Assembly (NCBI GenBank): GCA_905193755.1
Contig: CAJJPX010000001.1
Coordinates: 210,348 to 274,347, forward strand
Direction of reading: 5' to 3'
Length of the DNA: 64,000 bases
Origin: an uncultured Clostridium sp.
GTDB lineage: Bacteria > Bacillota_I > Bacilli_A > RF39 > UBA660
Shown here: positions 166 to 39,676 of the stretch, piece after piece
How the letters are laid out: each line of letters begins with the position of its first letter
How positions within the stretch are numbered: position 1 is the stretch's first letter
Notes under the pieces: model-generated
Databases searched by the model: none
Told to the model about the DNA's origin: nothing
Seen by the model: only the letters and a program-made list of their open reading frames with translations
Position numbers and translations under genes: made by a program

Positions 166-242
166 TGGTGGAGAATGTGGGACTCGAACCCGCGACCCCC
201 TGCGTGCAAGGCAGATGCTCTAGCCAACTGAGCTAATTCCCC
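166..242 (-). tRNA. tRNA-Ala (anticodon UGC)
   Basis: The reverse complement is GGGGAATTAGCTCAGTTGGCTAGAGCATCTGCCTTGCACGCAGGGGGTCGCGGGTTCGAGTCCCACATTCTCCACCA. It has a 7-bp acceptor stem with the G3:U70 alanine identity pair, anticodon loop CUUGCAC, T-loop TTCGAGT and an encoded CCA. There is one C-A mismatch in the T stem. Confidence 0.9.
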
Positions 243-7691: not shown

Positions 7692-8046
7692 AATAATTTT
7701 TAATAAGCCATTTTCTGTACCTATAAATAGGTGGTAAACATTTATCTAGAGATTTCTCTCTCTCTTACTCCTTTGTTATTCATTCGTAAGGACTCCCCTA
7801 CCAATTTTGGGTTTCTCACTCGCGGGGTTTACCTCGTTCCACAATAGTTATCCCTAACCATCTCGTCTCTATGGCACTTTATGACTACTATAGTCAGTTC
7901 TTGACTACCTCATCGCCGTTAATACTTACGTACTACCCAAGGTTATTTTTTTCCTTGGCACGAACACTTTCATTCATTTCAGAATGAGTGAGTATGGACT
8001 TTCCTCTACATAAATTAATATGCAGCGTTTACCTAAAAAATTATTT
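7692..8046 (-). ncRNA. rnpB: RNase P RNA, type B
   Basis: The reverse complement contains GGTAAACGCTGCA...GTAGAGGAAAGTCCATAC, AGTGTTCGTGCC, AAAGTGCCATAGAGACGA, GTGGAACGAGGTAAACCCCGCGAGTGAGAAACCCAAAATTGGTAGGGGA and ACAGAAAATGGCTTAT. These match the conserved blocks of B. subtilis RNase P RNA. A P1 helix forms between AATAATTTTT and AAAAATTATT. No ORF covers this GC-enriched gap. Confidence 0.95.
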
Positions 8047-37393: not shown

Positions 37394-37662
37394 TATTTAC
37401 TATTTTTAGATTTATGGAATTCTTCCATAACACCTACTTCACTTAAAATGTTCTTAGCTGTATCTGTAGGTTGAGCTCCTTCCTTAAGCCATTTTAAAGC
37501 TGCTTCTTTATCTACATTATATTTAGTAGCTTCTAAAGGCATATAAGTTCCTATAGATTCAATAACATTACCATCTCTTTTAGCTCTAGAATCAGCTACT
37601 ACAACACGATAGTAAGGTCTTTTCTTAGCTCCCATTCTTTTAAGTCTAATTTTAACTGCCAT
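37393..37662 (-). CDS. rpsP: 30S ribosomal protein S16
   Basis: [31 protein letters not shown]. Confidence 0.97.
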
Positions 37663-37687
37663 ATCTTTCTCCTCCTCAGTGACTATT

Positions 37688-37716
37688 AATATACACTAAA
37701 TTAAATAGTATGTCAA
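37688..37716 (-). promoter_or_regulatory. Sigma-A type promoter for rpsP
   Basis: The minus strand reads TTGACA, a 17-nt spacer, then TATATT. Confidence 0.6.
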
Positions 37717-37739
37717 CCTTTTTTGGTTAACATACTATT
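37704..37739 (-). other. 15-bp hairpin whose 3' arm carries the rpsP -35 box
   Basis: AATAGTATGTTAACC-aaaaaa-GGTTGACATACTATT on the minus strand. The one non-Watson-Crick pair is U-G on the minus strand and C-A on the plus strand. Confidence 0.5.
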
Positions 37740-37870
37740 TTATTGATTTATTTAAAATTTACTTAAAATTAAATTTTATATATTAAACCATGATTGATAA
37801 TTAATTTTTTACATAGAGAAAAGTTAAATTTCCACTATGAAAATCTATCCTAAAATTAAATTTTATCCAT

Positions 37871-37899
37871 TTGCATTACTTTTCCATATATATTACTCT
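37871..37899 (+). promoter_or_regulatory. Candidate promoter for the small hydrophobic-peptide mRNA
   Basis: TTGCAT, a 17-nt spacer, then TACTCT. The predicted transcription start is about 37906-37907. Confidence 0.35.
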
Positions 37900-37906
37900 A
37901 CATGCC

Positions 37907-38141
37907 GAAGTGCCTGAGGCTAGGTGTCACCAAAGTTATTTTTTCTCTTCAGGGGGGATAATACGGAGGGGATATTGTATGAGTAAAAAGGATTTTTTGA
38001 TAGGTATATTACTTGTTATTATTATCTTGTTACTTTTTATAATAATTTTATTAATTTTTTTAAATTAATAAAAACACCTAACTCACTTTGTAGTTAGGTA
38101 TTACAACAACGTGATACCTAGCCCACAGGGGGCAGGTGCTT
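37907..38141 (+). other. Structured mRNA: long-range 5'/3' clamp enclosing the 29-aa ORF
   Basis: 37907-37916 pairs with 38132-38141 (10 bp). 37918-37930 pairs with 38110-38122 (13 bp). The three non-Watson-Crick pairs are all G-U on the plus-strand RNA. Confidence 0.5.
37979..38068 (+). CDS. 29-aa hydrophobic peptide (MSKKDFLIGILLVIIILLLFIIILLIFLN), candidate type I toxin
   Basis: ATG sits 7 nt after GGAGGGG. Single predicted TM helix. This is the internal start of the 65-aa ORF-track entry. Confidence 0.5.
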   Translation: MSKKDFLIGILLVIIILLLFIIILLIFLN

Positions 38142-38144
38142 CAC
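38066..38144 (-). ncRNA. Candidate antisense sRNA (putative antitoxin) overlapping the peptide mRNA 3' UTR
   Basis: Extended -10 element TGATAGACT (38151-38159) with TTTACA upstream. Hairpin ACCTAACT-loop-AGTTAGGT (38075-38098) followed by GTTTTTATT on the minus strand. Confidence 0.35.
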
Positions 38145-38188
38145 TAATAATAGTCTATCACATTTTAATATATATTGTAAATAATTTA

Positions 38189-38210
38189 TAAAAAAGAAGT
38201 ATACACTTCT
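38189..38210 (-). terminator. Terminator of the BspA-like surface protein gene
   Basis: AGAAGT-gtat-ACTTCT immediately after TAA, followed by TTTTTT on the minus strand. Confidence 0.6.
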
Positions 38211-39676
38211 TAATTATTCTTCAATGTAAAGTAGCCTGGACTACTAGTGCCTCCATCTATTCTAGCATATGTTTTATCAACAAATGAACTATTATATTTA
38301 GTACCAGCACCACCTACTAAATTAGGTGAATTTTCAAACATATTATAATCATCAGTTACATTTGTTGTTACAAATTTATCACTTACATATATATGCTTTA
38401 AATTGCTAGAATCACTAAACATAAATTTCATATCAGTAACTTTGCTTGTATCAAAATTACTTACATCAATCTCATAAACATGGCTTCTATAAAACATATA
38501 TTTCATATTAGTAACTTTACTTGTATTAAAATTTTCTAAACCTTTTATTTCAGTAGCATAACTACTTTCAAACATATAACTCATATTAGTTACATTGCTT
38601 GTATCAAAACTACTTACATCTAGTGATTTTGCATGGCAGTAATTACCAAACATAGATGCCATATTAATAACTTTGCTTGTATTAAATTTTTCTAAACCTT
38701 TTATTTCAACAGCTTGACTATTATTAAACATTTCCTCCATAGTTGTAACATTACTTGTATCAAAATTACTTAAGTCTAAAGTAGTAGCATTAGAACCACC
38801 AAACATATAACTCATATTAGTTACATTGCTTGTATCAAAACTGCTTAAGTCTAATACTTTTGCTTTACTTTGATAAAACATTAAAGACATTGATGTAACT
38901 GGTTCATTATTTATATATGTACACAATTTAGAAGTTACAGGATTTGTACTTTCTTTATCAGTAAGAAAAACACTCCACCCATTATCAATGTTTTGAAGAA
39001 TTATCATATCATCGTCACTAGTGGCATCATAATTTGGTGCATATTCTTGTTTATATTTATAAGTATATTGTCCATTAACATACTCTGTTCCTTGTACCAT
39101 TTCTCCATCAAATGTACAATATATTGGAGTATTTTCTACATATTCATTTATTCCTAAAACTCCAGTAAAGCTTTTACCTTGATTATAGTTTTGATCAGCA
39201 TTTGTTTCTTTGAAAGTTATTGTTATATTATATTTATGAGTAATGTTTGGTTCTATTGAAACATTCTCTTTTACTTTAATTCTCTTAATTAGTGTACTTG
39301 ATAAAGATTCACACGTTCCTTCCTCTACTCCATTTGCATTTAACCTCGTACATGTAGCTTCAATTACCATTTCATCTTTAATTATTTCATTTGCTAATTC
39401 TTGCCATACTAAGTTGTATGATGTATTTAAAGTACCAGTATTCTTAACACTTACTTCTTTTGTAATAGTTGCTCCTGGTTTTATGTTATTCATTATTATT
39501 TCTGGCCCATCAGTATAAGTAAGTTCCAACGTACCTGTTTGAACTACTTGTTCTTTTACATCTTTATTAACTATAGTTGCTGTAAAGTACGCATAACTAA
39601 ATCCAACTGTAGCCAAAAATAAAAATACTATTCCTATGCCATATAACATCTTTTTATCTTTATTCATATCATTCAC
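38210..39676 (-). CDS. Secreted protein: TasA/camelysin-like N-terminal region plus DUF285/BspA-type leucine-rich repeats
   Basis: Signal region ending GFSYAYFTAT resembles the SipW-type class. The C-terminal half has about 7 units of FDTSNVTNMSYMF. Confidence 0.8.
   Translation of the reverse strand: MNDMNKDKKMLYGIGIVFLFLATVGFSYAYFTATIVNKDVKEQVVQTGTLELTYTDGPEIIMNNIKPGATITKEVSVKNTGTLNTSYNLVWQELANEIIKDEMVIEATCTRLNANGVEEGTCESLSSTLIKRIKVKENVSIEPNITHKYNITITFKETNADQNYNQGKSFTGVLGINEYVENTPIYCTFDGEMVQGTEYVNGQYTYKYKQEYAPNYDATSDDDMIILQNIDNGWSVFLTDKESTNPVTSKLCTYINNEPVTSMSLMFYQSKAKVLDLSSFDTSNVTNMSYMFGGSNATTLDLSNFDTSNVTTMEEMFNNSQAVEIKGLEKFNTSKVINMASMFGNYCHAKSLDVSSFDTSNVTNMSYMFESSYATEIKGLENFNTSKVTNMKYMFYRSHVYEIDVSNFDTSKVTDMKFMFSDSSNLKHIYVSDKFVTTNVTDDYNMFENSPNLVGGAGTKYNSSFVDKTYARIDGGTSSPGYFTLKNN
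38290..38880 (-). repeat. Tandem units of about 75 nt (25 aa) encoding DUF285/BspA repeats
   Basis: CATATAACTCATATTAGTTACATTGCTTGTATCAAAACT recurs near 38575 and 38806. The xFDTSxVTxMxxMF period is visible in the protein. Confidence 0.8.

Follow-up and report, generated by a model that had tools for sequence, protein, structure and literature searches.

We describe here a compact cassette of about 440 bp, located at positions 37745-38187 of a 64,000-nucleotide (nt) stretch of DNA from an uncultured Clostridium sp. (assembly GCA_905193755.1, contig CAJJPX010000001.1, forward-strand positions 210,348 to 274,347), which we call the window and to which all coordinates refer unless another locus is named. 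The cassette lies next to rpsP, occurs once in the window, and comprises an open reading frame (ORF) for a hydrophobic peptide of 29 amino acids (aa), a messenger RNA (mRNA) whose two ends are predicted to be joined by a long-range helix, here called the clamp, and a convergent antisense unit on the opposite strand. An initial annotation had proposed that these parts form a candidate type I toxin-antitoxin (TA) locus. To follow up this proposal, we set the window copy against 17 other distinct variants, which were recovered from gut metagenomes and from four species-level genomes and brought the alignment to 18 variants (alignment A2), complemented by a flank-inclusive alignment of 12 copies. 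In the latter, similarity among copies starts at about 37745, stops at about 38187, where the right edge coincides with the -35 element of the antisense promoter, and is lost beyond either end.

The ORF occupies 37979-38068 on the plus strand (ATG at 37979, TAA at 38066-38068) and encodes MSKKDFLIGILLVIIILLLFIIILLIFLN, as was confirmed by direct reading of the sequence. The peptide consists of KKD at the N-terminus, followed by a hydrophobic helix of 22 residues and an uncharged C-terminus (...LLIFLN); K3, K4 and D5 are its sole charged residues. The ORF, its start codon and its Shine-Dalgarno (SD) sequence were retained in all 18 variants, mostly at a length of 29 aa, the exceptions being 27 aa (locus L145), 22 aa (L009) and 33 aa (L135). 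These correspond to three indels. Two of them, a 21-nt deletion in L009 and a 15-nt duplication in L135, are multiples of three; the third, a 1-nt deletion in L145, falls so close to the end of the ORF that the stop codon comes merely two codons earlier. Variable columns in the ORF were distributed over codon positions 1, 2 and 3 as 12, 4 and 17, with position 2, which determines hydrophobicity, nearly fixed and with substitutions amounting to exchanges among I, L, V and F. The ORF behaves as a coding gene, and its product is, like type I toxins, a small (below about 60 aa) hydrophobic peptide from a real ORF.

The initial annotation had not recognised the peptide as a member of a named toxin family, and none of Pfam, NCBIfam, PADLOC and PHROGs gave a significant family match. 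The best sub-threshold scores were for SecE (E = 0.015) and, with one variant, for HokA (E = 0.26, which is noise), and there was no profile similarity to TxpA/BsrG, Fst/Ldr, Hok, Ibs, ShoB, TisB or other named toxin families. A collection of 5.8 billion proteins, queried with two variants concatenated, held no relative at E <= 1, presumably because gene callers skip ORFs of 29 codons.

Upstream of the ORF lies the predicted toxin promoter (37871-37899, plus strand), made up of TTGCAT (37871-37876), a 17-nt spacer and TACTCT (37894-37899), with transcription predicted to start at about 37905-37907. This start coincides with the first base of the clamp, as had been proposed, and the promoter is both present and conserved, though with a weak -10 element. 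All homologues carry it with invariant TTG and TACT[CT]T at constant spacing while the spacer sequences drift, and most of them have a TG upstream of the -10; a generic promoter scan did not list TTGCAT-17-TACTCT. Between the left edge of the cassette and this promoter there is an AT-rich block (37745-37870) that is kept across genomic contexts and to which no function was assigned. It contains the palindrome AAAATTnAATTTT twice, at 37764-37778 and 37851-37865, 87 nt apart, and the second copy stands immediately 5' of the toxin -35. When these approximately 125 nt were examined for a promoter, an ORF or a small RNA, no convincing one was found; judged by its position and repeats, the block may be an UP element or an operator.

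The predicted toxin mRNA spans 37906-38215 on the plus strand (about 310 nt), an extent deduced from its promoter together with the clamp and the hairpins further downstream. Its 3' end is probably at a weak hairpin at 38188-38217 or at a conserved bidirectional hairpin that is placed here in other copies. The latter hairpin lies about 25-45 nt past the antisense -35, recurs in several different contexts (L001, L007, L113, L131, L132) and changes in a compensatory manner (GATACTA...TAGTATC, GTACTA...TAGTAC, GCACTA...TAGTGC). It looks like a bidirectional terminator that was formerly part of the cassette, and it may set the 3' end of the toxin mRNA.

The antisense unit begins with a promoter at 38152-38181 on the minus strand, with -35 TTTACA (38181-38176), an 18-nt spacer and the extended -10 TGATAGACT (38160-38152); a generic scan matched it as TTTACA-18-TAGACT with an upstream TG (9/12). 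Its hexamers are kept across copies (-10 TGATA[GA]ACT; -35 TTTACA, once TTTATA) together with the 18-nt spacing, about half of the spacer columns vary, and the -35 is the final conserved block of the cassette. Transcription would end at a terminator hairpin at 38073-38102, followed by a U-run at 38063-38072 (TTTATTAATT), which was recovered by a terminator scan that returned two terminator-like sites against 0.2 expected. Including its loop, the hairpin has 23 of 26 columns invariant, and in all variants the U-run is found after it on the minus strand only. The linker between the hairpin and the clamp 3' arm varies most, with none of its 17 columns invariant. The extended -10 and the terminator of the initial annotation were thus both found by the scans and are conserved in homologues. 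We also considered whether the hairpin is solely the terminator of the neighbouring minus-strand gene and rejected this, as it travels with the cassette into other contexts. The resulting predicted antisense RNA, the putative antitoxin, covers 38064-38145 (minus strand, about 80 nt), starts at about 38144-38145 and ends in the U-run beside the stop codon of the ORF. In its consensus fold, a 5' stem-loop is joined by a linker to the terminator, and the RNA is fully complementary to the 3' untranslated region (UTR) of the mRNA, including the 3' arm of the clamp, in agreement with the coverage originally predicted.

Relatives of the cassette were found in a range of genomic settings. Many contigs from human-gut metagenomes encode an RpsP protein identical to that of the window, and the spacer between the HAD gene and rpsP holds the element in seven out of ten RpsP-matching loci, at 79-88% identity. 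In the remaining three (L002, L003, L006), about 390 bp are absent, corresponding to 37780-38167; the loss takes away the antisense -10 along with the toxin gene and the clamp and spares both cassette ends, and its junction falls within a short direct repeat, ATTTTA(A)TATAT. Because the ends are kept and the junction lies in this repeat, the 'empty' allele is best read as an internal deletion and not as an unoccupied site. A pattern scan of genome contigs (GGCTAGGT-N{160,190}-ACCTAGCC) proved too loose, as it returned 119 loci that were nearly all chance palindromes in unrelated phyla; the true matches among them, identified by BLAST, were in the four species-level genomes (L082, L089, L100, L113), which are labelled 'uncultured Clostridium sp.' or 'Bacilli bacterium'. 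A scan of metagenomes with the invariant hairpin yielded 20 further loci, all from the human gut, including two contigs with two copies each, and a second contig of one such assembly holds another, so that some genomes have a copy number of 2-3. Altogether, the cassette was seen in at least six neighbourhoods, next to HAD/rpsP, a truA-like gene, an M16 peptidase gene, an nrdG-like gene, a camelysin/DUF285-type gene and a prepilin-type gene. Collections of plasmids, phages and viral contigs contained nothing similar.

Two of the loci deserve separate mention. Compared with L137 and L144 (contig ERZ857965.6), copy L143 is flanked on its left as L137 is, by the gene for a 96-aa protein, and on its right as L144 is, by an nrdG-like gene, which suggests recombination between two cassette copies; if so, the repeats formed by the cassette may mediate chromosomal rearrangement. 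L009:2506-2728 (minus strand) is a degenerate copy in which the 21-nt deletion cuts the peptide short and a part of the clamp 3' arm has given way to the terminator hairpin, copied in reverse-complement form (CCTACAAAGTGAGTTAGGT), and it looks like an inactivated module.

The clamp itself joins a 5' arm at 37907-37930 to a 3' arm at 38111-38142, both on the plus strand. Pairing takes place between 37907-37916 and 38133-38142 (10 bp) and between 37918-37930 and 38111-38123 (13 bp), with A37917 unpaired and a 9-nt bulge at 38124-38132. The initial annotation had described the same 10 + 13 bp around a 9-nt bulge, which stands, with the 3' arm at 38110-38141, which is one base off; its statement that the three non-Watson-Crick positions are all G-U on the plus strand holds in the sequence (U37911-G38138, G37912-U38137, G37926-U38115). 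The folding check on the ORF-sense RNA that had been suggested gave the clamp in the minimum free energy (MFE) structure as well as in the centroid, and in the RNAalifold consensus it forms the outermost element. The plus-strand RNA 37903-38145 folds to -76.9 kcal/mol (z = -6.2, with 0 of 200 shuffles as good), and the minus strand folds more poorly (-55.7 kcal/mol, z = -4.1).

Across alignment A2, 98.3% of 414 clamp cells are paired, compared with 29-43% when the partner is slid by 1-3 columns. With the ORF present in every variant, both elements whose conservation in related genomes the initial annotation had made decisive are conserved. Thirteen clamp pairs never vary, eight vary on one side only through wobble-compatible transitions (A-U/G-U or C-G/U-G), and one pair occurs as U-G, C-G and U-A, as well as U.U in five variants. 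The 3' arm is nearly invariant and lies entirely within the antisense transcription unit. Among the clamp cells there are 42 G-U against 2 A.C, which argues that the helix is kept for the plus-strand RNA, since on the minus strand or in DNA it would be mismatched in most copies; the assignment of the helix to the ORF-sense transcript is in this way borne out across the variants.

This strand asymmetry bears on the possibility that the cassette is a non-autonomous dispersed repeat resembling miniature inverted-repeat transposable elements (MITEs). On that view, the clamp arms would be inverted repeats at the DNA level, and the presence of the ORF and promoters would be incidental. Such an element would likewise be multi-copy, intergenic and variable in presence, and the mixed flanks of L143, the short direct repeats bounding the deleted segment and a weak 27-nt inverted similarity between the cassette ends all fit it. 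The inverted repeat, however, is not terminal but lies inside the cassette, about 160 nt from one end and 45 nt from the other, and almost all of its mismatches are G-U on a single strand. Substitutions in the ORF follow a coding pattern, its indels preserve the reading frame, and the 'empty' site retains both ends of the cassette as a deletion would. The low copy number and the absence of matches in the plasmid, phage and viral collections also speak against it. We rejected membership in this class on the internal and asymmetric repeat, the constrained ORF and the ends kept in the 'empty' allele, and we give the idea scarcely any credence.

The strong plus-strand fold and the conserved GC-rich arms would also suit a structured non-coding RNA, either a small RNA or a cis-regulatory leader, for example for rpsP, upstream of which the window copy lies, with the ORF as an AT-rich by-product. 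The interior of the cassette nevertheless behaves as coding, and the 5' UTR between the clamp arm and the SD is among its most variable parts, with only 4 of 34 columns invariant. For a leader of rpsP in particular, the cassette is on the wrong strand, is absent in strains with identical rpsP and stands beside unrelated genes elsewhere; strand, other contexts and variable 5' UTR led us to reject that version. The initial annotation had named a hit to a known RNA family outside TA systems as evidence that would count against it, and the Rfam 15 covariance models gave no match for 37650-38260 at the gathering score and nothing meaningful even at E <= 10 (the best score was 17.7 bits for ARRPOF against a gathering score of 127). 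A non-coding RNA of this kind is, in our judgement, highly improbable.

Returning to the putative toxin mRNA, its translation start is surrounded by alternative pairings. The SD sequence GGAGGGG (37965-37971, plus strand), correctly noted in the initial annotation with its 7-nt spacer to the ATG, has GGAG invariant across variants. The annotation had further proposed that UCUCUUC (37944-37950, plus strand) hides the SD by pairing with GAGGGGA. This pairing is present in the MFE structure of the window copy, with an ensemble probability of about 0.4, but it is lineage-specific and not conserved in relatives, as UCUCUUC is absent or replaced in 10 of the 18 variants (the L113/L132/L133/L135 group has lost it, and in the L131/L136 group another sequence stands in its place). 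The recurrent partner of the SD in the ensembles is instead the sequence at or just past the end of the clamp 5' arm, where a conserved anti-SD, GUCACC (37926-37931, plus strand), pairs with GGnGAU (37968-37973), that is, with the 3' part of the SD and the spacer. In this helix, 91.7% of cells pair and two of the six pairs show compensatory double changes (A-U/G-C and C-G/U-A), as in AUCGCC/GGCGAU (L145) and AUUGCC/GGCAAU (L007) versus GUCACC/GGUGAU; in a shuffle control, 7 of 500 reached the observed value. The anti-SD helix and the inner clamp helix are mutually exclusive because they share five of the six GUCACC bases. Substitutions of the L007/L145 type in the 5' arm still pair with the invariant 3' arm via wobble, as would be expected if selection acted on both pairings.

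A further helix connects the initiation region (37966-37985, plus strand), which includes the 3' part of the SD, the AUG and codons 2-3, with 38031-38049, where codons 18-24 are nearly invariant even at synonymous sites. In the RNAalifold consensus, this helix has 16 pairs, all of them paired in 100% of cells, with five one-sided wobble changes, and controls with slid partners are also high (43-77%) because the region is AU-rich.

To compare the accessibility of the ribosome-binding site (RBS) between states, we calculated the predicted free energy needed to open the stretch from the SD to the AUG in three forms of the RNA for all 18 variants. The mean was 8.5 kcal/mol for the full-length mRNA with the clamp formed, 11.6 kcal/mol for a nascent RNA ending at the stop codon, and again 11.6 kcal/mol for the full-length RNA with the antisense-complementary region masked. 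The rise of about 3 kcal/mol when the 3' arm is missing or masked was seen in 16 of the 18 variants, the exceptions being L007, in which the energy was unchanged, and the degenerate copy L009. Simple pairing probabilities of the SD shifted in no consistent way between the states, and only the opening energy of the whole SD-to-AUG stretch followed a trend. According to these calculations, the clamp is predicted to act as an anti-anti-SD that frees the RBS. The initial annotation had pointed to a fold-back that silences translation as in hok, and the prediction goes the other way: formation of the clamp makes the RBS easier to open, by about 3 kcal/mol.

From these features we infer the transcripts and their ends, the order of folding, the toxicity and a role for RNase III in the following scheme. 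The sigma-A-type promoter (37871-37899) would produce a plus-strand mRNA from about 37906 that encodes the putative toxin, a membrane peptide with a single helix, and the convergent promoter (38181-38152) would produce the antisense RNA of about 80 nt as putative antitoxin. During transcription, the anti-SD would occupy the SD and the AUG region would pair with codons 18-24, and translation would be blocked. Once the 3' UTR has been made, the 3' arm (38111-38142) would capture the whole 5' arm in the 23-bp clamp, which would bury and protect the 5' end and remove the anti-SD from the SD, making the RBS about 3 kcal/mol cheaper to open and partly exposing it. The invariant terminator hairpin, when present on the mRNA, shows a loop complementary to that of the antisense RNA, a candidate kissing-loop contact, and the antisense RNA would probably dock through these loops and then zip over the 3' arm. 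The 5' half of the antisense RNA is similar to the mRNA 5' arm with its G-U pairs made Watson-Crick and with a 9-nt insert, and for this reason it should out-pair the mRNA's own 5' end on the 3' arm. Displacement of the 5' arm would put the anti-SD back on the SD, and the duplex of about 80 bp between mRNA and antisense RNA is a probable substrate of RNase III. If the antisense RNA were lost, the clamped and more translatable mRNA would persist, and the peptide would damage the membrane. The cassette would in this case amount to a three-state RNA switch of a sort not described for any type I TA system, in which the 5' arm serves as anti-SD, the 3' UTR licenses translation only when transcription has finished and the antitoxin mimics and displaces the 5' arm, the long-range helix being both an activator and the direct target of the antitoxin; we put this forward tentatively, as less likely than not.

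With bsrG/SR4 and txpA/RatA the cassette shares a small hydrophobic peptide and, as predicted, a convergent antitoxin complementary to the 3' region of the toxin mRNA, a likeness that the initial annotation had drawn and with which the conserved convergent promoter and terminator agree. BsrG is 38 aa and TxpA 59 aa long. The cassette peptide, with 29 aa and no charged C-terminus, differs from them and has no sequence similarity to their models, and the cassette is a dispersed chromosomal element that is not in a prophage. In bsrG/SR4, the antitoxin binds the 3' part of the mRNA, contact is made via the terminator loop and the SD helix grows from 4 to 8 bp (PMC3834814); for the cassette, a likely first contact via the antitoxin terminator loop and the tightening of a distant SD-hiding helix upon binding at the 3' end are predicted alike. 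The difference is that in the cassette the signal would pass via a displaced 23-bp clamp whose 5' arm holds the anti-SD. To our knowledge, no such 5'/3' clamp has been described for bsrG.

Closure of the full-length mRNA by pairing of its extreme 5' end with the 3' UTR is a property that the cassette is predicted to have in common with hok/Sok (fold-back inhibition, fbi) and aapA/IsoA of Helicobacter, which are also chromosomal and multi-copy. In aapA and hok, metastable hairpins sequester the SD during transcription and are later replaced by the long-range helix, a sequence of events expected for the cassette as well, and the 5'-3' long-distance interaction locks the mRNA in an inert state (PMC6733600). 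Whereas their mRNAs are inert with this interaction and are activated by 3' trimming, the cassette clamp is predicted to do the opposite: the long-range pairing is conserved, but the predicted RBS accessibility is higher with the clamp, which is at odds with inhibition of the hok type. Sok and IsoA overlap the 5' part of their mRNAs, whereas the predicted antisense RNA of the cassette covers the 3' arm, and the cassette peptide has no homology to Hok and comes from a Gram-positive host.

The type I toxins of Clostridioides difficile are 34-59 aa long, hydrophobic at the N-terminus and lysine-rich at the C-terminus, and most of them are encoded in prophages or adjacent to CRISPR arrays; outside this species, hardly any such system is known from the anaerobes of the gut (PMC6563280). 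Its modules (CD2517.1-RCd8, CD0956.2-RCd10 and others) resemble the cassette in a convergent 3'-overlapping antitoxin, which for the cassette is predicted, and in toxins that had been left unannotated, have no homology to other families and occur in several copies per genome (PMC6563280). The cassette differs in lying between housekeeping genes and in its peptide, which is charged at the N-terminus and lacks a lysine-rich charged C-terminus. The Gram-negative type I toxins Ibs and ShoB, which are peptides of at most 30 aa, almost wholly hydrophobic and without a charged tail, encoded in multi-copy chromosomal cassettes, resemble the cassette in these respects; they show no similarity to its peptide by NCBIfam or Pfam and have another antisense arrangement in another phylum. 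The design of the cassette appears to join a convergent 3'-overlapping antitoxin with a hok/aapA-like 5'/3' long-range helix, and we class it as a candidate for a new family within an established kind of system.

We consider it rather probable that 37745-38187 is a chromosomal type I TA module of an undescribed family. The overall proposal of a small hydrophobic ORF, a clamped mRNA and a convergent antisense RNA, as a candidate type I TA system, has survived comparison with the 17 further variants, and several observations weigh against it. The peptide has no charged C-terminus of the kind usual for Gram-positive type I toxins (PMC6563280), the toxin promoter has a weak -10 (TACTCT, three of six consensus positions) that lacks the upstream TG in the window copy, more than one hairpin could mark the 3' end of the mRNA, and the conserved approximately 125 nt at 37745-37870 are not accounted for by the model. 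Covariation in the clamp, which had been proposed as a check, yielded conservation and no compensatory changes: strict double-sided covariation is missing, with no pair scored as changed on both sides, and a column-shuffle control is uninformative because the 3' arm hardly varies, so the RNA-level argument for the clamp consists of conservation and wobble asymmetry. All variants come from one narrow lineage with 78-90% identity and few independent substitutions. The two compensatory pairs in the anti-SD helix come from two related variants only (L007 and L145), and the corresponding GUCACC/SD helix of the window copy has one A.G mismatch. The opening energies are thermodynamic predictions on AU-rich RNA, and the rise in the window copy is small (from 6.8 to 8.1 kcal/mol).

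The lack of the charged tail also speaks for a rival reading, in which the ORF encodes a harmless small membrane protein, for instance a regulator or a subunit-like peptide, whose expression is adjusted by mRNA structure together with a cis-antisense RNA, as a genuine gene/antisense pair outside TA systems. The coding and antisense-regulation evidence fits such a protein just as well. Small housekeeping proteins, on the other hand, are usually single-copy and syntenic, whereas copies of the cassette occupy at least six unrelated intergenic sites, number 2-3 in some genomes and have been deleted in some strains, and the combination of layered translational occlusion, a clamp that buries the 5' end and a fully complementary convergent RNA is a hallmark of toxin-gene design. 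Weighing both sides, we regard the harmless protein as unlikely and retain the type I TA module as the favoured interpretation.

The surroundings of the window copy show some features of their own. To the right, a minus-strand gene at 38210-39676 encodes a DUF285/BspA-like protein (488 aa; Pfam PF03382, PF12389) whose N-terminus resembles camelysin and is situated between the HAD gene and the cassette. This gene is absent from all ten related rpsP loci, where the HAD gene adjoins the cassette directly, and by this comparison it is a strain-specific insertion, which has replaced the conserved bidirectional hairpin that other copies have to the right of the cassette. To the left, directly upstream of rpsP, there is a 16-bp terminator-like hairpin (37703-37740, minus strand), the 3' half of which contains the -35 TTGACA of the best promoter match of the region (11/12), and which probably insulates rpsP from upstream transcription. 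In Firmicutes, ffh is expected before rpsP; it does not precede rpsP here, and the arrangement is unusual. Elsewhere in the window, Rfam identified a class B RNase P RNA at 7699-8040 (250.9 bits) and a tRNA at 169-242 (minus strand), and GerA-type spore germination genes adjoin the locus. The class B RNase P RNA and the GerA-type genes indicate a low-GC, spore-forming Firmicute host.

Homology is a poor guide to type I TA systems, and the cassette, if correctly interpreted, would add a TA family from an uncultured Firmicute lineage of the human gut, with a toxin that has never been reported by gene callers. Within about 440 bp, it combines three conserved and partly exclusive helices with an antitoxin that would mimic one arm of the mRNA, and it offers a clean and testable case of how antisense binding at the 3' end may be relayed to a distant ribosome-binding site. 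The cassette could also be turned into a portable device for RNA control, or into a counter-selection marker in low-GC anaerobes. Should the displacement switch hold true, the family would represent a new regulatory variant of type I TA systems, in which the logic of the clamp is the inverse of that in hok and aapA.

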